Shown: positions 31,592-61,428 of the stretch, in pieces
How the letters are laid out: every line of letters begins with the position of its first letter
Numbering within the stretch: the stretch's first letter is position 1
From: Escherichia phage dhabil
Direction: 5' to 3' (one strand)
Sequence record: MN850621.1
Length of the DNA: 64,000 nucleotides
Translations under genes and position numbers: made by a program
The notes under the pieces: model-generated
What the model was told of the DNA's origin: nothing
Seen by the model: only the letters and a program-made list of their open reading frames with translations
Database searches by the model: none

Positions 31592-32224
31592 TTAAATTGC
31601 GTTGGTTACGGTTTTGATAACTTCAGATGATACGTTTTGGAAGTCGATATAAGTATTCTTACCACCAGTCTTAATCTTAACATCAAGACTCAAGGAAGTA
31701 AACACTTGTTTTTCTTTATCGGTCATATTATAACCGAAAATACGCATCATTCCGTCACGACGGACTTCGATTTGACGAATACCGTTGGTACGTTTAGCGA
31801 ATCGAACTTCAAGATTGCTACGGTTTTCAGCGATTTCACGAATCTCGATACGGTCTTCTAACAAAGATTTAACTTCATCAGCCAGTACCACCATTTCAGG
31901 AGTAACACCACGTGAACTGCGAGTTTTACGTTTTTCCAACATCTCTGGAGCATTTTCAGAAGCGAACAGGTCAGCAGCTTTTTGAACTAGGTCCATTGCT
32001 TCACCTGTAGCCACCAGTCCATCACCAGATTTTTCGATGAATCCTTTCTTAATCAATACACCAATGTTAGAGTTAACTACCGCAGCACTAAATTGTTCAC
32101 TCAGGGCTTCGCGGACTTCGCCTGAAGTGATGAAGTTATTCTTGATGATATGTACTAAGATAGAAGCCGTTTTTTCATTCAGGACGTCTTCAGAAGCTTT
32201 GATGATATAAGTAATTTTAGACAT
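31592..32224 (-). CDS. motA: Middle-transcription activator MotA
   Basis: 210 aa; N-terminus MSKITYIIKAS.DVLNEKTA...NSNIGVLIKKG..EKSGDGL and C-terminal RTNGIR...MRIFGY closely resemble T4 MotA. Confidence 0.8.
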   Translation of the reverse strand: MSKITYIIKASEDVLNEKTASILVHIIKNNFITSGEVREALSEQFSAAVVNSNIGVLIKKGFIEKSGDGLVATGEAMDLVQKAADLFASENAPEMLEKRKTRSSRGVTPEMVVLADEVKSLLEDRIEIREIAENRSNLEVRFAKRTNGIRQIEVRRDGMMRIFGYNMTDKEKQVFTSLSLDVKIKTGGKNTYIDFQNVSSEVIKTVTNAI

Positions 32225-32295: not shown

Positions 32296-32315
32296 GAGCT
32301 CTTTTCCAAGAGCTC
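32296..32315 (-). other. RNA hairpin downstream of ORF 32329..32544
   Basis: 8-bp inverted repeat GAGCTCTT / AAGAGCTC with 4-nt loop. Confidence 0.35.
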
Positions 32316-32328
32316 TGGTAAAAATTAC

Positions 32329-32544
32329 TTAGATTGATAGGTCTTTAATCTCGGCGATTAAAGCGGCTTTTCCTTCACGAAGTTTTTCCAGTTCACGACC
32401 ATTAGAGCCGCGAACTACTAAGGAATTTATCTCCACTTCCAGCCAATTTAGTTTTTCAACTAGTTCTTTACGTTTAGCATTCATACCAGGTTTAACTTTA
32501 CCGAAACGGATGGTAGCGTTTTGGGTATTTTTCATCTTATTCAT
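32329..32544 (-). CDS. Hypothetical basic protein (71 aa)
   Basis: ORF flanked by two near-identical early-promoter cassettes. Confidence 0.5.
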   Translation of the reverse strand: MNKMKNTQNATIRFGKVKPGMNAKRKELVEKLNWLEVEINSLVVRGSNGRELEKLREGKAALIAEIKDLSI

Positions 32545-32583
32545 TTTTGTATCTCCATTTCACTCTGTTGTTTTGATAGGTCT

Positions 32584-32612
32584 ATAGTATCATGTTTAAA
32601 GCAGATGTAAAT
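32584..32612 (-). promoter_or_regulatory. Early-promoter cassette (ATTTAC -35 variant)
   Basis: Minus strand ATTTAC - 17 nt - TACTAT - AGACCTATCAAAACAACAG. Confidence 0.45.
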
Positions 32613-32630
32613 ACTTTTTTGCACTAAACC

Positions 32631-32652
32631 AAAAAAGGAACCCGAAGGTTCC
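32631..32652 (-). terminator. Intrinsic terminator after the gene 52 / small-peptide pair
   Basis: GGAACC-CGAA-GGTTCC flanked by A run (5' on plus strand) and T run, so terminator-like in both directions. Confidence 0.55.
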
Positions 32653-32757
32653 TTACTTTTTAAAGTGTGCTGCTATTAAACCTATAGCTAAGCCCGTCGC
32701 CAGGCCTAGGATAACAGCAAAGATACAGAGTAACAAGAACTCGACTCCAAGGCTCAT
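32653..32757 (-). CDS. Small hydrophobic peptide (34 aa), not in ORF track
   Basis: MSLGVEFLLLCIFAVILGLATGLAIGLIAAHFKK; ATG overlaps the gene 52 stop (ATGA), terminator directly downstream. Confidence 0.4.
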   Translation of the reverse strand: MSLGVEFLLLCIFAVILGLATGLAIGLIAAHFKK

Positions 32758-34133
32758 AGAGCCTCCAAATCTTTAACATACTCAGTTACAACATCAGTGG
32801 TTTTCCAGTATTGATGCTCTTCTTTCTTAGCCTTGGCTTCCAAAGCCAGTTTCTTAGCTTCATCGGACGTGATATGGAAAATGTTCATTGCTACGAGTTT
32901 ATCAGCATATTCACCGTAGACTTTATTACCGGCCAATTCTTCGGTTAAAACCTTACGGGTCTTACCTTGGATAACCACTACACCGTCAATAACATCTTTA
33001 ATGAATGTAGCTTTAGCCAATGCCAGTTTGAAAGCTTCTTCGGTTTCGATGATTTTACCATCAATACGTTTTTGTACAAAGGTCTTACGGACCTCAACGA
33101 AATCACGAATCAGTTCAACTGCATCTTCGTAAACCTTAAGTTTACCTTTCTCATTAATGACGGTCAGGTTTTGCGAACGACGTTCGATTAACCCGAAGTC
33201 CTTCATGATTTTTTCGTGCTTCTTATTTTCTTCAGTAGGCAATTCATATTCTTTACGAATCTTAACCTTGAAGCCGAAACCATTCTCGTCACAGTCGTCA
33301 TCATACGTGATATACCCTTTGTCTTCTAAAGGGTCCAACACCTTAGCCACGTATGTTTCACGGTCATATTTGTACGGGATTTCTGTAATATGCATTTGGG
33401 TTCGAGAGGTGAACTTATACGTTCCACGAATCTCATAACTTCCAGGTTCAATCTCAACAACTTCACCACGGAATTCCGGATAAGCTACCTTAGGCTTGGT
33501 TACGCGTTTTTCTTGAAGAACCTGCAATACAGCTTTCTTAACAGAATCAAAACTATGAGGAAGAATATTAGTTGCATAACCAGTTGCAATACCGGAAATA
33601 CCATTAAGAAGAACAGTAGGAATAATAGGCAGATAAAAAGCTGGTGGCTTATGTTCGACATCCGCATGAACCGGAGCATATTCTGTATCCTTATAAACCT
33701 TTGCGAAATTAGTTCCAATTCGTGCAAAAATATAACGAGAGGCTGCAGCCTTTTGAACTAATCGAGAACCAAAGTTACCTTGGCCATCCAACAGTGGGAA
33801 GTTGTTGTTCCATGTGTTAGCCATCAAAGCCCCTGCTTCCTGAGCAGAACCTTCACCATGGTGATATCCAAGGTCGGCTACACCACCTGCAATAGAAGCT
33901 AGTTTGTGGAATTTTTCTTTATTACCACGAGCCATATCAAGACAACGAGCAACTACAAAACGTTGTACAGGTTTAAAGCCATCAATCATATTTGGAATGG
34001 CGCGGTTTTCGACAGTATACATTGCGTAAGCCAGCGCTTCGTTGTCGATAATGCTTTTTAAGTCACGACGAGTAAAAGCGTCATCGTAAACATCTAAGGA
34101 TTGTTTAAAAAGGGTATCAATTACATCAGCCAT
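32754..34133 (-). CDS. 52: DNA topoisomerase II medium subunit gp52 (GyrA-like cleavage subunit)
   Basis: 459 aa; GyrA/ParC-like N-terminal region; position after motA as in T4. Confidence 0.85.
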   Translation of the reverse strand: MADVIDTLFKQSLDVYDDAFTRRDLKSIIDNEALAYAMYTVENRAIPNMIDGFKPVQRFVVARCLDMARGNKEKFHKLASIAGGVADLGYHHGEGSAQEAGALMANTWNNNFPLLDGQGNFGSRLVQKAAASRYIFARIGTNFAKVYKDTEYAPVHADVEHKPPAFYLPIIPTVLLNGISGIATGYATNILPHSFDSVKKAVLQVLQEKRVTKPKVAYPEFRGEVVEIEPGSYEIRGTYKFTSRTQMHITEIPYKYDRETYVAKVLDPLEDKGYITYDDDCDENGFGFKVKIRKEYELPTEENKKHEKIMKDFGLIERRSQNLTVINEKGKLKVYEDAVELIRDFVEVRKTFVQKRIDGKIIETEEAFKLALAKATFIKDVIDGVVVIQGKTRKVLTEELAGNKVYGEYADKLVAMNIFHITSDEAKKLALEAKAKKEEHQYWKTTDVVTEYVKDLEAL

Positions 34134-34137
34134 AATT

Positions 34138-34278
34138 TTACCATACTAGTGAATGAATAACCATAATAACATCGGAAATAAAAAGCACAACTTGGATAAG
34201 ACCGAATATTACTCCATAATACAGCGCTACTAATAAAGCAGCAAGGGCTACAGAGTAGCCCAAGATTTTCTTAATCAT
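34138..34278 (-). CDS. Small membrane peptide (46 aa), not in ORF track
   Basis: MIKKILGYSVALAALLVALYYGVIFGLIQVVLFISDVIMVIHSLVW; stop 4 nt before the gene 52 ATG; in the position of the T4 ac/stp small genes. Confidence 0.35.
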   Translation of the reverse strand: MIKKILGYSVALAALLVALYYGVIFGLIQVVLFISDVIMVIHSLVW

Positions 34279-34432
34279 TTTTAATCATCTTAAGTAAACC
34301 GACAAAAGTAGAAAGAACCCAGCCAATAAACAGAAAACTTAAGAATACCGGACCAGGGGTCCATACACCTAAAAAGAAGCAAACTGAACAGACCATAGCC
34401 ATAATAAGTTCAATAAAAACTAGGATAATCAT
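34271..34432 (-). CDS. Small membrane protein (53 aa), not in ORF track
   Basis: MIILVFIELIMAMVCSVCFFLGVWTPGPVFLSFLFIGWVLSTFVGLLKMIKND; 8-nt overlap with the next small ORF. Confidence 0.35.
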   Translation of the reverse strand: MIILVFIELIMAMVCSVCFFLGVWTPGPVFLSFLFIGWVLSTFVGLLKMIKND

Positions 34433-34519
34433 ATTTTCCTCATTAGCGTCCGAAGACGCCTTTAGTTTTAAGATTGTTACGATAGAACTGCATCACATGT
34501 TCGTTATGGAAATTACTCA

Positions 34520-34969
34520 TTAGTAAGCCTGCAGAACGAATTTGAAGTTATCGGCCAACATACGGTTCATTTCTTCCAGTGTCTGGAGGTCTGAACTATG
34601 GTTGCGAGTGAAAGCCATAGCGATTTGACCTTTACCGAAGCCTGTAGTCAGTGGTTTCATTTTAGAAGCCGGCACATAAAGAACTTCATACACAACACCA
34701 TTCACTGCCATAGTGCGAGCTGATTGTGAACGTTTCTTACGAATGTTAGCTACGATACCATCAAGACCTTGAGCTGAACGTTGGTTGCCGACATAAAAGC
34801 GTGCAGCTACGACACGAGAATCTGCTTCACCTTTAACAAAGAAGTAGAAGCCTGGCTGGGCTGAGATTTCTTTAGAAGGCTTACCATTTTGGTATTCGCC
34901 ATTCTTAACATAAGCAACAGTAGTAGCACCAGCAGACAGAACGTTACCGCGAGTCATATAAGTATTCAT
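34520..34969 (-). CDS. ndd: Nucleoid disruption protein Ndd
   Basis: 149 aa; C-terminal block [22 protein letters not shown]...[19 protein letters not shown] resembles T4 Ndd as I recall it; position consistent. Confidence 0.65.
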
Positions 34970-35018
34970 ATCAATTTCCTCAGTAGATTAATGTTTTGTT
35001 ATCCAGTCAACGAGAACC

Positions 35019-35047
35019 ATTATAACATGATTCTCGAGGTTGTAAAC
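35019..35047 (-). promoter_or_regulatory. Early promoter (canonical GTTTAC-N17-TATAAT) for ndd
   Basis: Minus strand GTTTAC - 17 nt - TATAAT, about 50 nt upstream of the ndd ATG. Confidence 0.6.
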
Positions 35048-35391
35048 TATTTTTGTAGCTGTTCTAAAATAAATCCGCTAGTATAAAAGGGAGCATTATA
35101 AACCTTGTTCAGTGGGTTCAAAGCCTGTCCGTAAGTATCACGTAGTTCTTTGATAACGTTTTCATAACTCACGTAGTAAGCACTATGATAACCAGGGTCC
35201 ATACTCATACGAAATTTAATGAACCGATAAAAGCCTGTTTCCGGGTCTTGAACGAAAACGAAATCAGCACTCGTCATAATCTTTGAATGTACGCCGGGAA
35301 TCATACTTTGATTGAATGCCACCGATGCATCCTGAAGGCTGAGTTGTTTAAAGAACATTACCTTAGCATTACCAAAAAAGATTTTAGACAT
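35047..35391 (-). CDS. Hypothetical protein (114 aa)
   Basis: ORF abutting the ndd promoter. Confidence 0.45.
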   Translation of the reverse strand: MSKIFFGNAKVMFFKQLSLQDASVAFNQSMIPGVHSKIMTSADFVFVQDPETGFYRFIKFRMSMDPGYHSAYYVSYENVIKELRDTYGQALNPLNKVYNAPFYTSGFILEQLQK

Positions 35392-35405
35392 GATAATTTC
35401 CTCAA

Positions 35406-35651
35406 TTATTCAGGGTCAACTGCGCCATCCCACAGGTCAACTTCTTCTGATGATTCCATCAGTTCATCAACTGTGAAGCACTCAGTATTATTTTCAATAG
35501 CAAAACGCTTTTGATAAAAAGGATAATCCAAACAGTTTTCAGTACGAATAGGCCGCTCGCTATTATCCATTAAAGGAGAAATACGAATCAATTGTTGACC
35601 ATTACCTAAGACAAATTTTTCACCAACTGCGATATCTTTAAAAAGTTTCAT
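35406..35651 (-). CDS. Hypothetical protein (about 81 aa)
   Basis: ORF track 35406..35693 begins at a TTG; ATG at 35651 has GAGGA 7 nt upstream. Confidence 0.45.
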   Translation of the reverse strand: MKLFKDIAVGEKFVLGNGQQLIRISPLMDNSERPIRTENCLDYPFYQKRFAIENNTECFTVDELMESSEEVDLWDGAVDPE

Positions 35652-35661
35652 AATATTTTCC

Positions 35662-35778
35662 TCAGAAGTTAAAGAATACACGTACATGGTCAATCATAAA
35701 AACTATTGGGAAAATGCTCAATACAACCAATAACACAAACATGTTCCAAATTGCTTTAAGTAAGTTTTTCATAATCAT
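35662..35778 (-). CDS. Small membrane peptide (38 aa), not in ORF track
   Basis: MIMKNLLKAIWNMFVLLVVLSIFPIVFMIDHVRVFFNF; first ORF after cassette 35799..35827. Confidence 0.35.
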   Translation of the reverse strand: MIMKNLLKAIWNMFVLLVVLSIFPIVFMIDHVRVFFNF

Positions 35779-35798
35779 CTCCATTAGTTGATAGGTCT

Positions 35799-35827
35799 AT
35801 AATATCATGTCTAATGGAGATGTAAAC
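35799..35827 (-). promoter_or_regulatory. Early-promoter cassette
   Basis: Minus strand GTTTAC - 17 nt - TATTAT - AGACCTATCAACTAATGGAG; 10-bp inverted repeat 35778-35787 / 35811-35820. Confidence 0.55.
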
Positions 35828-35882
35828 ATTGATTGTTATCATTATTACTGGAAATAATATCACTCATATTAAGCGCCAGAAC

Positions 35883-36074
35883 CTACTCAAACCCTGCGCT
35901 CCCAATTTCAAGGTTAGAGCGGTTGTCAAAGATTTTGCACCGACCTTTAACCTGGCTGGATGCGTAGAACTCCGCAGTTTCTTGAACATCAAAAGCATAC
36001 AACCTTGTTTCTAAATCGCGATAACGTGGTTCGCCGTTAAGTTCAAACCAAATCATAATAGTTACTGGGATCAT
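35883..36074 (-). CDS. Hypothetical protein (63 aa)
   Basis: ORF downstream of promoter-like element 36107..36135. Confidence 0.4.
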   Translation of the reverse strand: MIPVTIMIWFELNGEPRYRDLETRLYAFDVQETAEFYASSQVKGRCKIFDNRSNLEIGSAGFE

Positions 36075-36106
36075 TTTCGGGTTCCTTGTTTGTTGGTGTA
36101 TGAGTA

Positions 36107-36135: not shown

Positions 36136-36225
36136 TGATTTATGCTAATTTCCACAACAATAAACTAAAGCATATACAAATAATTGGAATACAAGTCATC
36201 CAAATAAGGCACCACGTTTTGCTAC

Positions 36226-36492
36226 TCAAAACACCACCTCTTTTATCTCAATCAATCCCCTGTGCAATGCGGTGCGAAGGTCATAAAGGATATCTATACC
36301 GTCAACATTATCCAGTTTACCGTCGATAAGTTTTTGTAAATCTTTTTTTGACGCTATCAAAGGGCGGAGAAATTTACATTCAGAAAGAGATAACTCTGTA
36401 GTAACATCATCACCTTCACCTGATGCATCATACATAGCGGCGACAACCATACCCGTAACTTTGTGTTTAGCGTAATATAATTTGATATCCAT
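36226..36492 (-). CDS. Hypothetical protein (about 88 aa)
   Basis: ORF track start 36552 lies in the promoter leader; ATG at 36492 follows the GAGGAG of the cassette. Confidence 0.5.
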   Translation of the reverse strand: MDIKLYYAKHKVTGMVVAAMYDASGEGDDVTTELSLSECKFLRPLIASKKDLQKLIDGKLDNVDGIDILYDLRTALHRGLIEIKEVVF

Positions 36493-37053: not shown

Positions 37054-37362
37054 TCAGATGTCTTCAGGGTAAATGTCGGCATCGCTGCCAATCGGAGTAA
37101 CCCCGGGTTCGTCTTCACCATAAATGCCTCGAATATGAAGTTCACCATAATAAATTCGGTCGTTTGGTTCTAAAATATCGGAATCAATTAAAGGAAATTC
37201 ACCTTCGACCACCTCATCACATTCTAGAAAAGCGTAATGGACATCGCCAGGATGTTTAACGAGCTTAGCACAATAAACAGTACCTGCTCGATGGAACCCA
37301 CGCAAATTAGAAATCTTGATATCACGTTCACCGACATTTAGGTAATTAATCATTTTACTCAC
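37054..37362 (-). CDS. Hypothetical protein (102 aa)
   Basis: ORF in operon orientation. Confidence 0.45.
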   Translation of the reverse strand: MSKMINYLNVGERDIKISNLRGFHRAGTVYCAKLVKHPGDVHYAFLECDEVVEGEFPLIDSDILEPNDRIYYGELHIRGIYGEDEPGVTPIGSDADIYPEDI

Positions 37363-60331: not shown

Positions 60332-60384
60332 TATATTTTTCCATAGGCACCATTATATTTTTCTCACGTTTTTAAGATAGGGTA

Positions 60385-60409
60385 ATTATATCACTTCACA
60401 GCTATAGCA
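60385..60409 (-). promoter_or_regulatory. Candidate MotA-dependent middle promoter for uvsX
   Basis: Minus strand TGCTATA (MotA-box-like) - 12 nt - TATAAT, about 55 nt upstream of the uvsX ATG. Confidence 0.35.
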
Positions 60410-60541
60410 TTACTTAATTCCTCGGTTGATAGCCTTATCGACTATCTTCCGAACTTCTCGTTTCTCGAGCCAGCATAATACTAGAAGGGCTCCGAAAGAG
60501 AATAATAACAAACCTATAAAAAGCAATAGAGGACCTAGCAT
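60410..60541 (-). CDS. Small membrane peptide (43 aa), not in ORF track
   Basis: MLGPLLLFIGLLLFSFGALLVLCWLEKREVRKIVDKAINRGIK; ATG overlaps the stop of the 297-aa ORF. Confidence 0.35.
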   Translation of the reverse strand: MLGPLLLFIGLLLFSFGALLVLCWLEKREVRKIVDKAINRGIK

Positions 60542-61428
60542 ACTACGTCCTCATAACGTGGCATTTCGTACTCAGAATGAATATGGGCACCGAAATAAAT
60601 GAATTCAGCCAGACCAGGATGGAATACTAAACCTGGGTTCTCATGATAAATGATATGTGGTCTTGATTTCAGAATCTGATAATATTCAACCTTACTCGGT
60701 TTGAATTTAACAATCTCTACATCAGGACGATAGTCTTCACGCTTAAATGAATCATTCGGGTCGGTGATATAAAGACGAGCACCTTCAGCGGCAGCTTGGT
60801 CTACAACTCTTTCGAATTGATAGCACTTATCCGAAATACGGAATGGATGGAAAATACCATCAATTTTAATAGGCGCTAGACCATCAGAGTAACGCTCAAT
60901 TACTGCAGGATTAATTACCTTTTGGTCTACAAAAATCTTATCAGAGGATGCACCTCGTGACACCAGGACGTCTTTCTGGCATTGATTCAGGACTGTAGTA
61001 TAAAGTGAACGTTCAACTGAAGCCACATCAATATCAATGAACTCATCGATATAATAACGAGGAACTTCAGGGTCCATTGTGATATTAAAGTTGAATTGTA
61101 CAGTATGAGCACCATCATAACCGGTGATATCGGTTACCAGTCCTGAGCAATCATAGTATTCGATTAGTGAATCGACTACAAACTCATTTTCGGACCAGAA
61201 ATGTTTACGGGTTTCATAAGCATTTTCTTTATACCAAAGTGGTACGAAATTCAGTTCTGGGAATAATTCAATGCATTCTTTGATATCGCTCGAATTTCTA
61301 GGATAAGCCAGATAATCACCTGGACGAGCACGATTTAAATGGAGTTGAAAATTACCGTCCTTAAGGACGGCATATTCACCTGTTTCGTAACTACGCATAC
61401 TGAAAATAGGAACGATAAACAAACTCAT
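60535..61428 (-). CDS. Hypothetical protein (297 aa) in the beta-glucosyltransferase slot
   Basis: ORF between uvsX and gene 42 where T4 carries bgt; no similarity to T4 beta-gt recognisable by eye. Confidence 0.55.
   Translation of the reverse strand: MSLFIVPIFSMRSYETGEYAVLKDGNFQLHLNRARPGDYLAYPRNSSDIKECIELFPELNFVPLWYKENAYETRKHFWSENEFVVDSLIEYYDCSGLVTDITGYDGAHTVQFNFNITMDPEVPRYYIDEFIDIDVASVERSLYTTVLNQCQKDVLVSRGASSDKIFVDQKVINPAVIERYSDGLAPIKIDGIFHPFRISDKCYQFERVVDQAAAEGARLYITDPNDSFKREDYRPDVEIVKFKPSKVEYYQILKSRPHIIYHENPGLVFHPGLAEFIYFGAHIHSEYEMPRYEDVVC

Follow-up and report, generated by a model that had tools for sequence, protein, structure and literature searches.

The interval 34138–34432 of the window, a 64,000-nucleotide stretch of Escherichia phage dhabil (MN850621.1), is best explained, at a probability of roughly 85%, as a pair of overlapping early genes for T4-like membrane proteins, namely gene 52.1 and a gene for a 53-residue protein. 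The window belongs to a T4-like Dhakavirus and is 99.8% identical to Escherichia phage CLB_P2. The original prediction had listed five short hydrophobic ORFs (32653–32757, 34 aa; 34138–34278, 46 aa; 34271–34432, 53 aa; 35662–35778, 38 aa; 60410–60541, 43 aa), and all five were found on the minus strand at the lengths given, with a best 19-residue Kyte–Doolittle window of 2.48–2.84 and a GRAVY value of 0.95–1.86. They are, with high confidence, real small membrane-protein genes, as had been proposed; conserved frames, family membership and ribosome-binding sites support this, and inspection of relatives for broken frames showed instead that the 46-aa, 53-aa, 34-aa, Ndd.4-type and 43-aa frames are conserved. 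A start codon at a neighboring gene was confirmed for the ATGs at 32757, 34278, 34432 and 60541 but not for the ORF at 35662, the 5′ side of which adjoins an early promoter. The genes had not, however, been missed, as all five are already CDSs in the CLB_P2 record. The idea of an under-annotated class therefore stands for RefSeq JS98, which lacks the 53-aa, 34-aa and 43-aa genes, and for stp, which CLB_P2 lacks, but not for the five genes in CLB_P2. Gene order follows the T4 map (motA, MotA.1, 52, 52.1, ac, stp, ndd, Ndd.1 to Ndd.6), and in T4 the counterparts of the cluster (52.1, ac, MotA.1 and Ndd.2 to Ndd.6) carry the annotation of predicted membrane proteins. Four of the five ORFs fall into PHROG families, and 52.1 also into Pfam family DUF7396; the genes are thus mostly catalogued already. 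Scans of the window for tRNAs and Rfam families gave no match, and literature searches on gp52.1, on the Ndd.x and MotA.1 names and on T4 ribosome profiling of small proteins returned nothing relevant.

Gene 52.1 (34138–34278, minus strand) encodes a predicted membrane protein of 46 residues that is matched from residue 1 to residue 46 by DUF7396 (PF24129; 78 bits against a cut-off of 27) and also by phrog_3595 (E 1.6e-24). It is identical to T4 gp52.1 at 42 of 46 residues (91%), and the T4 gene has the same position, the same 8-nt overlap with the gene upstream and a stop codon 4 nt ahead of the gene 52 ATG, so that we see no substantive difference between the two. The T4 record notes that gp52.1 was formerly mistaken for Ac. 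The two 52.1 genes are separated by 14 synonymous and 5 nonsynonymous differences, giving a dN/dS of 0.08, similar to the 0.07 obtained for gene 52. AlphaFold2 predicts a single helix spanning residues 2–45 (pLDDT 96.7), and a PDB profile search with the protein returned nothing. Related loci were gathered with the N-terminus of gp52 as anchor; 52.1 lies directly upstream of gene 52 in 38 of them, the family keeps a length of 44–46 aa, and an alignment of 14 proteins shows its YYG and VVLFISD motifs without variation. The ORF is intact in 795 of the 797 phage records that contain it, and in vB_EcoM_005 it is destroyed by a deletion of ~100 nt. Among three coliphage genera 52.1 is 80–91% identical, compared with 67–78% for gp52, whereas in Enterobacter phage CIP9 it is the less conserved of the two, at 57% versus 77%.

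The gene that overlaps the start of 52.1 by 8 nt (34271–34432, minus strand) encodes a predicted two-helix membrane protein that is matched across residues 1–53 of 53 by phrog_9347 (E 1.5e-25). Its start at 34432, which is preceded at 5 nt by a GAGGA ribosome-binding site, lies 10 nt past the stp stop codon; 52.1 has no Shine–Dalgarno site of its own. AlphaFold2 predicts helices at residues 2–21 and 28–52 joined by a GVWTPG turn, that is, a helical hairpin (pLDDT 74). All 76 phage records containing the ORF have it at near full length (at least 80% coverage), and 1.84 billion proteins yielded only three true representative clusters for the family. Comparison with the Tequatrovirus Bas38 gave 10 synonymous and 6 nonsynonymous differences (dN/dS 0.15); inside Dhakavirus, nonsynonymous changes equal or exceed synonymous ones. 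A PDB profile search with the family produced only a chance match (E 0.5).

Upstream of this gene lies stp (34443–34520, minus strand; 25 aa; PF08133 at 72.1 bits against a cut-off of 25; phrog_6763), whose product activates the PrrC anticodon nuclease of the host and agrees at every position with residues 1–25 of the 26-residue T4 Stp. Its nucleotide identity to T4 is 98.7%, while that of its flanks is 59–75%. The gene forms the upstream flank of the slot occupied by the 53-aa gene and adjoins the interval under study; it was absent from the original list, and CLB_P2 has no CDS annotated there. Beyond it are ndd (34520–34969, minus strand), for the 149-aa nucleoid disruption protein, and an early-type sigma-70 promoter (35019–35046, minus strand; 11 of 12 consensus matches) composed of TTTACA, a 16-nt spacer and TATAAT with a TG extension. 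Downstream of 52.1, gene 52 (32754–34133, minus strand) encodes the 459-aa medium subunit of topoisomerase II, which is 78% identical in amino acid sequence to T4 gp52 and is the conserved anchor of the cluster; its ribosome-binding site is weak. The 34-aa gene (32653–32757, minus strand) follows, and its stop abuts an intrinsic terminator (32635–32654, minus strand) identified in the promoter and terminator scan, which reads AAGGAACC-TTCG-GGTTCCTT followed by TTTTGG and shares two bases with the TAA stop of that gene; another early promoter lies past it at 32611–32584. This arrangement suggests a single early operon that would be transcribed from the promoter at 35046–35019 through ndd (the first gene), stp, the 53-aa gene, 52.1, gene 52 and finally the 34-aa gene to the terminator at 32654–32635. 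Translation of its last four cistrons is probably coupled, since an 8-nt overlap connects the 53-aa gene with 52.1, only 4 nt separate 52.1 from gene 52, and gene 52 and the 34-aa gene overlap at ATGA. Promoter and terminator calls were consensus-based, and coupling was deduced from the sequence.

The 34-aa gene encodes a predicted single-pass membrane protein (phrog_16377, E 2.3e-21), the ATG of which overlaps the gene 52 stop and is preceded at 5 nt by GGAGG. The gene occupies the MotA.1 position, which is all that it has in common with T4 MotA.1; the two are not homologous, as BLASTP gave an E value of 0.18, hhalign a probability of 0.81%, and the PHROG families differ (phrog_16377 versus phrog_3487). 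A tblastn search of phages with this ORF gave no match, the low-complexity filter probably masking it, and IMG/VR loci were used as the comparison set for both the 34-aa and the 43-aa ORFs. The 34-aa ORF is intact in nine loci; against locus L005 it shows 10 synonymous changes and 1 nonsynonymous change (dN/dS 0.02), and its pN/pS is 0.06 in frame versus 0.93 and 5.1 in the shifted frames.

The ORF originally placed at 35662–35778 lies inside a 40-aa ATG ORF ending at 35784, and the gene most likely starts at the third ATG, at 35772, giving a predicted single-pass membrane protein of 36 aa that begins MKNLL (35662–35772, minus strand). This start is preferred because GGAG lies 6 nt upstream, because the phrog_3098 profile (E 4.1e-21) begins there, at residue 5 of the 40-aa ORF, and because several T4-type relatives lack the ATGs upstream of it. 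An early-type promoter precedes the gene (35799–35826, minus strand; 10 of 12 consensus matches). The protein aligns with T4 Ndd.4 through a common KAIWN...LSIFPIV...MID motif, the JS98 copy is annotated ndd.4, pN/pS within Dhakavirus is 0.20, and the ORF type occurs in 33 loci, with a truncated start in one. A homologue of Ndd.6, a small hydrophobic protein of 29 aa with a TTG start (36140–36229, minus strand; phrog_8851, E 1.9e-15), is preceded by GAGGTGG and annotated in CLB_P2 and JS98; it was absent from the original list. Inspection of the list of ORFs in the region revealed no Ndd.2- or Ndd.3-type ORF; the window shares with the T4 MotA.1 and Ndd.2 to Ndd.6 cluster the Ndd.4 and Ndd.6 homologues and the MotA.1 position.

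The evidence for a gene is weakest for the 43-aa ORF (60410–60541, minus strand), which lies between a 297-aa gene and uvsX, upstream of the latter. Its start at 60541 overlaps the 297-aa gene by 7 nt and has GAGGA 6 nt upstream, and the protein combines an N-terminal transmembrane helix with a basic tail (EKREVRKIVDKAINRGIK; RKIVERAINRG in the VR20 homologue). The gene is conserved in three genera, with ORFs of 42–44 aa at the same place in Gaprivervirus VR20 and Karamvirus CIP9, and its pooled pN/pS is 0.51 in frame versus 1.03 and 1.71 in the shifted frames; comparison with JS98 gave 1.5 synonymous and 4.5 nonsynonymous differences, too few within the genus to show purifying selection. Two Dhakavirus genomes have lost it by deletion, most records of the genus show no annotation over it, and its product has only three protein clusters in a 5.8-billion-protein database; in tblastn the low-complexity filter hid the transmembrane half of the ORF. 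The loss of 52.1 in vB_EcoM_005 and of the 43-aa gene in the two Dhakavirus genomes implies that both are dispensable for growth.

Hydrophobicity alone does not raise these ORFs above chance. The six frames of the window contain 26 comparably hydrophobic ATG ORFs of 25–65 aa, and 17 of these lie wholly within ORFs of at least 90 aa. An eighteenth, a 37-aa hydrophobic ORF at 37224–37337 in an apparent gap, was rejected because it is nested inside a 102-aa GTG ORF and has no PHROG match. The frames could therefore be chance openings in AT-rich spacer, where T-rich codons yield hydrophobic peptides, and CLB_P2 itself annotates a probably spurious 35-aa CDS across a promoter (35756–35863). The five ORFs stand out from chance by their position in gaps of the coding strand, their conservation across genera, their ribosome-binding sites and a synonymous bias: lengths are kept across 9 to 38 related loci from several genera, each gene has a Shine–Dalgarno site or a coupling overlap, Pfam and PHROG families exist for them, and in every family pN/pS is lower in the annotated frame than in either of the other two. 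For four ORFs synonymous substitutions predominate, and they do so in the named frame alone; this signal is weak for 60410–60541. A chance origin is thereby already refuted for all but that ORF, and for the set as a whole we consider it barely credible. A different objection is that 52.1, and perhaps the 53-aa ORF, serves mainly as a translated leader that brings ribosomes to gene 52, its peptide being functionless. The missing Shine–Dalgarno site of 52.1, the 4 nt between its stop and the gene 52 ATG and the weak ribosome-binding site of gene 52 would all suit a leader, as would the finding that gene 52 is always immediately preceded by a small ORF, even where, in distant T4-like phages, that ORF comes from other sequence families. 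A leader needs only an open frame, however, whereas the residues of 52.1 are under strong purifying selection relative to T4, its two motifs are invariant and its conservation reaches Pfam level; moreover, vB_EcoM_005 is a viable isolate without an intact copy. We regard the leader explanation as improbable.

The position of the 53-aa gene, between stp and 52.1 with its end over the 52.1 start, is that of T4 ac, the loss of which yields acriflavine-resistant phage (10.1101/2025.06.30.662393). The 53-aa ORF might accordingly be the ac of this phage, an orthologue or functional equivalent conferring acridine sensitivity by blocking efflux. Beyond the slot, the two share size (53 versus 51 aa), a predicted hydrophobic two-helix build, an early expression context and coupling to 52.1, and both proteins end in ...ND because each gene overlaps the start of 52.1 by 8 nt; no Ac-family ORF was found elsewhere in the window, and Bas38, which carries the 53-aa type between T4-like flanks, labels it 'acridine resistance protein', a label that looks positional only. 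On sequence comparison, however, the ORF is in the ac slot but is no Ac homologue. BLASTP with T4 Ac gave no alignment, hhalign of the two family profiles gave a probability of 0.16%, the turn motif is TGExSVxSQ in Ac and GVWxPG/S in the 53-aa family, and a PHROG scan matched the ORF to phrog_9347 only, while T4 Ac and JS98 orf256 matched phrog_2501. An iterative HMM built from T4 Ac drew in 12 members of the 53-aa family, a link judged to be compositional drift and rejected because hhalign on clean alignments scored the families like unrelated pairs and the PHROGs differ. In addition, Ac-type and 53-aa-type genes are both intact in JS98 and in locus L004 and stand side by side in locus L010; since JS98 keeps both cassettes, they need not be functionally equivalent. 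That the 53-aa ORF is ac is therefore unlikely. The suggested analogy to T4 ac, stp and imm proved loose, holding for the slot but not for homology to Ac, nor for Stp, which in T4 is a soluble 26-residue PrrC activator and no membrane protein. The original prediction also suggested for these proteins a part in superinfection exclusion or host defense, that is, roles like those of T4 Imm and Sp or directed against membrane-based defenses. Their early, non-essential character, their variable presence among close relatives and the interaction of the neighboring stp with a host defense are in keeping with such roles, and the conservation of 52.1 in the coliphage genera relative to CIP9 is compatible with a host-specific target. 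Recombination among coliphages can explain the host-correlated pattern as well, and is plausible because stp is so much closer to T4 than its flanks are; there is no sequence link to Imm or Sp, no relative of 52.1 or the 53-aa family in the PDB, and none of the five matched the PADLOC defense-system models (0 matches). Exclusion or anti-defense functions are, on balance, rather unlikely.

As to what the proteins do, we tentatively favor, by analogy and at somewhat less than even odds, modulation of host inner-membrane complexes. Within minutes of infection the peptides would insert into the inner membrane of the host, bind a host membrane complex there and alter its activity. The 34-aa protein, the Ndd.4 homologue and the 43-aa protein are probably further representatives of this group, the small, non-essential proteins that T-even phages make early for the inner membrane. 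AcrZ (49 aa) is a bacterial small inner-membrane protein that binds AcrB and alters the activity of the complex. The likeness to AcrZ-type regulators is one of possible action only, in that proteins of 30–55 aa with one or two helices could bind a larger membrane complex, and neither a Pfam search nor a PDB profile search detected homology to them. For T4, Ac has been proposed to block the AcrAB-TolC efflux pump (bioRxiv preprint 10.1101/2025.06.30.662393; PMC13250531). We note that this model is itself a preprint proposal and that the 53-aa protein has no detectable sequence similarity to Ac.

The 53-aa gene is probably one of several unrelated cassettes for small hairpin proteins held between the conserved flanks stp and 52.1, the slot being occupied by Ac in T4, by the 53-aa type in the window phage and Bas38, and by both in JS98. 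The 'spacer' of JS98 is a 5′ remnant of 52.1 joined to a copy of stp without its start, at a GAGTAAT microhomology between 52.1 and stp. T4-type hyperplastic regions contain PeSL cassettes, in which promoter-plus-stem-loop flanks act as recombination sites (Arbiol et al. 2010, PMC2839356). The cluster resembles these in that small non-essential early genes come and go among relatives and in the pairing of a terminator with an early promoter at 32584–32654, but in the 53-aa/Ac exchange the homology is provided by coding sequence on either side, that of stp and of 52.1. A PeSL-mediated swap of the two genes was considered and discarded, as the JS98 joint lies within stp/52.1 coding sequence and the only PeSL-like unit is downstream of the 34-aa gene.

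For the window itself these results are of little importance, as the genes belong to known families and are present in the nearest GenBank record. They matter more for the group: reference genomes have gaps (three conserved genes in JS98, stp in CLB_P2), and what fills the ac slot in Dhakavirus phages, as in at least one Tequatrovirus (Bas38), is a different gene from ac; where it is mislabeled 'acridine resistance protein', annotation-based predictions of sensitivity to acridines and other intercalators will therefore be wrong. Alternative cassettes between fixed flanks amount to a natural experiment on Ac-like peptides at host membranes, the effects of which bear on combining phages with antibiotics. 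It is a speculative extension, and one we think doubtful, that the stp–52.1 slot is a swap site for unrelated two-helix effectors of the Ac, 53-aa and 57-aa types, each directed at a different machine in the inner membrane of the host, a multidrug efflux pump for instance, with 52.1 as their common partner. If so, the 53-aa protein would be a new phage modulator of host envelope transport, and sensitivity to intercalating drugs and antibiotics would be set differently from the way Ac sets it.

The five short ORFs that the original prediction had described as hydrophobic peptides, all on the minus strand, are each present with the proposed limits: 32653-32757 (34 aa), 34138-34278 (46 aa), 34271-34432 (53 aa), 35662-35778 and 60410-60541 (43 aa). 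Their best 19-residue Kyte-Doolittle windows score 2.48-2.84. Short hydrophobic ORFs are not rare by chance in an AT-rich genome; 17 of 26 equally hydrophobic short ATG ORFs in the six frames lie wholly within ORFs of at least 90 aa, and a further candidate gap gene, 37224-37337, was rejected because it sits within a 102-aa ORF. The five ORFs are set apart from such chance ORFs by the coding-strand gaps that they fill, by ribosome-binding sites and by conservation in relatives. The sites read GGAGG before 32757, GAGGA before 34432 and before 60541, and, in the ORF at 35662-35778, GGAG before the third ATG at 35772, the likeliest start, which gives 36 aa in place of the product proposed from 35778. 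The 46-aa ORF lacks a ribosome-binding site of its own and overlaps the 53-aa ORF by 8 nt. Gap filling, ribosome-binding sites and conserved frames bear out the proposal that these are real genes; a chance origin is ruled out for all but one of them and is unlikely for that one. They are T4-type small membrane-protein genes, already known.

Over 32300-36100 the sequence shares 99.8% identity with Escherichia phage CLB_P2 (a Dhakavirus; Straboviridae, Tevenvirinae), and hundreds of T4-like phages match it less closely. Of 73 gene-like ORFs in the window, all but a block of six are on the minus strand. The local order, motA (31592-32224), a 71-aa gene, the 34-aa ORF, gene 52 (32754-34133), the 46-aa ORF (52.1), the 53-aa ORF, stp (34443-34520, minus strand, 25 aa), ndd (34520-34969), and then Ndd.1-like genes with the Ndd.4-like and Ndd.6-like ORFs, is that of the T4 map, where the annotation runs motA, MotA.1, 52, 52.1, ac, stp, ndd, Ndd.1 to Ndd.6, the small genes being mostly recorded as "predicted membrane proteins". 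The Ndd.6 homologue at 36140-36229 (minus strand; 29 aa, TTG start, GAGGTGG ribosome-binding site; phrog_8851, 'outer membrane protein') is a further small hydrophobic gene of the cluster, outside the five first listed. Consensus scans placed an early-type promoter in front of ndd, at 35046-35019, and a strong hairpin terminator at 32654-32635 (AAGGAACC-TTCG-GGTTCCTT, then a T-rich tail) that shares two bases with the stop of the 34-aa gene and has a further early promoter just downstream. We infer one unit that opens with ndd and stp and continues with four linked genes: the 53-aa gene runs into 52.1 by the 8-nt overlap, 52.1 is separated from gene 52 by 4 nt, and gene 52 overlaps the 34-aa gene at ATGA.

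Reading frames are kept in related phages, as judged from phage records and from comparison loci drawn from IMG/VR (49 around gene 52, 80 around uvsX). The 52.1 gene lies directly upstream of gene 52, with 44-46 aa, in 38 loci and is near full length in 795 of 797 phage records; 14 synonymous and 5 nonsynonymous differences from T4 give a dN/dS of 0.08, equal to that of gene 52 (0.07). In 20 loci the 53-aa gene encodes 46-55 residues and keeps the turn G(V/A)WxP(G/S); it also occurs in 76 records from phages of Escherichia, Enterobacter, Edwardsiella, Kosakonia, Klebsiella, Salmonella and Shigella, every one with at least 80% coverage. Its dN/dS against the Tequatrovirus Bas38 is 0.15 (10 synonymous, 6 nonsynonymous), and very close Dhakavirus genomes show few changes, mainly conservative replacements. 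The 34-aa gene differs from one relative (L005) by 10 synonymous changes and 1 nonsynonymous change (dN/dS 0.02), and its pN/pS is 0.06 in frame versus 0.93 and 5.1 in the shifted frames, by which measure an overlapping 39-aa frame is clearly not coding. Within the genus, the Ndd.4-type gene has a pN/pS of 0.20.

The 43-aa gene is the weakest case of the five. Within-genus differences are too few for a selection test, but ORFs of the same build, 42-44 aa long, are found at the corresponding position in Gaprivervirus VR20 and Karamvirus CIP9, the former sharing an RKIV(D/E)(K/R)AINRG tail. The pooled pN/pS is 0.51 in frame versus 1.03 and 1.71 shifted. Two Dhakavirus genomes (L054, L058) have deleted the gene, leaving GGTCCT of codons 3-4, and its stop now serves the upstream 297-aa gene. 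In the window this 297-aa protein, upstream of uvsX, is encoded at 60535-61428 (minus strand; phrog_3891), and its JS98 copy is annotated RB69 orf047c-like. T4 carries its beta-glucosyltransferase gene at this position, and the difference may bear on the DNA modification type of the phage. The spacer from the 43-aa gene to uvsX, 60332-60409 (minus strand), is nearly invariant in Dhakavirus and VR20 (GTGATATAATTACCCTATCTT...) and contains TATAAT with a TGCT motif upstream, an arrangement that resembles a MotA-dependent middle promoter for uvsX.

Losses occur upstream of gene 52 as well. In the 155-kb record of vB_EcoM_005, a deletion of ~100 nt (locus L006, about 2540-2620) removes most of 52.1, destroying it, and makes the 53-aa ORF run on to 70 aa. 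Gene 52 is shortened too, with an ORF of 395 aa, which points either to a natural deletion mutant or to a fault in the assembly. A 2178-bp metagenomic ENA contig (P0019) encodes a 47-aa ndd::52.1 fusion of a T4-type Ndd N-terminus (MKYMTVTDLNNAGAT) with the C-terminal two thirds of 52.1, apparently a natural deletion of ndd, stp and ac. The deletions and the fusion show that phages can dispense with these genes and do not show them to be non-coding. Distant T4-like phages without recognisable 52.1 or Ac (the Karamvirus-type loci L011, L013, L015 and L025, and L039-L050) still have one or two hydrophobic ORFs, 43-60 aa long and belonging to other sequence families, immediately before gene 52; what is conserved there is the position, not the sequence.

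The original prediction had regarded these genes as an under-annotated class, which holds in part. CLB_P2, the nearest record, annotates all five as CDSs, four match PHROGs at full length (phrog_16377, 3595, 9347 and 3098), and the 46-aa ORF matches Pfam DUF7396 at 78 bits (cut-off 27). The 43-aa ORF has a weak PHROG match (E 0.033) and only 3 clusters in a database of 5.8 billion proteins; most of its 21 records in the phage collection carry no feature over it. The annotation of JS98, the reference Dhakavirus genome, includes 52.1, ndd.4, stp and an Ac-like gene, orf256, but omits the 53-aa, 34-aa and 43-aa genes and a 57-aa hydrophobic gene that JS98 also carries, and stp, plainly present in the window (PF08133, 72 bits), is absent from the CLB_P2 annotation and from the genes listed in the original prediction. 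CLB_P2 also has a 35-aa GTG-start CDS at 35756-35863 (minus strand), which is probably a spurious call because it has no PHROG match and lies across an early promoter at 35826-35799.

The 53-aa gene sits in exactly the place of T4 ac, and its product shares the ...ND ending of Ac because the last codons overlap the ATGATTAAG start of 52.1. Homology to Ac was nevertheless rejected: BLASTP gave no match, hhalign of clean family alignments returned a probability of 0.16%, no better than for other unrelated pairs, T4 Ac and JS98 orf256 belong to phrog_2501 and the 53-aa gene to phrog_9347, and JS98 and a second locus (L004) have both types. No Ac-type, 57-aa-type or MotA.1-type ORF was found anywhere in the window at E up to 1. 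We aligned the cassettes of the window, JS98, T4 and Bas38 (AugustSocin; MZ501052.1). T4 has stp, Ac and 52.1, whereas the window and Bas38 have stp, the 53-aa gene and 52.1; in Bas38 the phrog_9347 gene (locus L135, 901-1062) replaces ac between T4-like flanks, and its label, 'acridine resistance protein', looks like a positional mislabel. The same label has been put on 52.1 in some records, an old error according to a note in the T4 record. The 145-nt 'spacer' between the Ac-like and 53-aa genes of JS98 (locus L007, 2151-2295; also L004 from 2157) is a pair of pseudogene remnants joined at a GAGTAAT microhomology: the 5' part of 52.1, frameshifted (nt 5-71), and an stp copy without its start (nt 3-78; 75/76 identical to the window stp). 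JS98 therefore arose when two alternative modules were brought together by unequal crossover, of which the spacer is the scar. The 53-aa gene and Ac can stand in for each other in a single slot whose coding flanks are conserved. Between the window and T4, stp has 98.7% nucleotide identity, against 59-75% for ndd, gene 52 and motA, which suggests that the module has recently been exchanged between genera; the window Stp is without the final Q of the T4 protein.

In AlphaFold2 predictions the 53-aa protein is a helical hairpin (helices 2-21 and 28-52; pLDDT 74) and 52.1 a single continuous helix (residues 2-45; pLDDT 96.7). The 53-aa, 34-aa and 43-aa proteins have a cluster of lysines at the C-terminus; in 52.1 and the Ndd.4 type the cluster is N-terminal. 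By the positive-inside rule these ends would face the cytoplasm. Ac is the only functional lead in this class: its expression sensitises E. coli to acriflavine and deletion of ac makes T4 acriflavine-resistant (10.1101/2025.06.30.662393), and Ac is proposed to block AcrAB-TolC efflux (10.1101/2025.06.30.662393; repeated in PMC13250531). By analogy, our best guess is that the peptides bind host inner-membrane complexes and change their activity early in infection. That the 53-aa protein is functionally equivalent to Ac is possible but unsupported. A role of 52.1 as a pure translational leader is contradicted by selection at the protein level. Its conservation relative to gp52 (80-91% versus 67-78% across three coliphage genera, 57% versus 77% in Enterobacter phage CIP9) fits a host-specific partner, and recombination among coliphages would explain it equally well. 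The suggested role in superinfection exclusion or anti-defence is neither supported nor excluded, PADLOC, Pfam and PDB giving no link.

The new points are modest: the ac slot holds a gene of a different family, sometimes mislabelled; the slot swaps cassettes via its coding flanks; and several of the small genes, plus stp, have been left out of some reference annotations.
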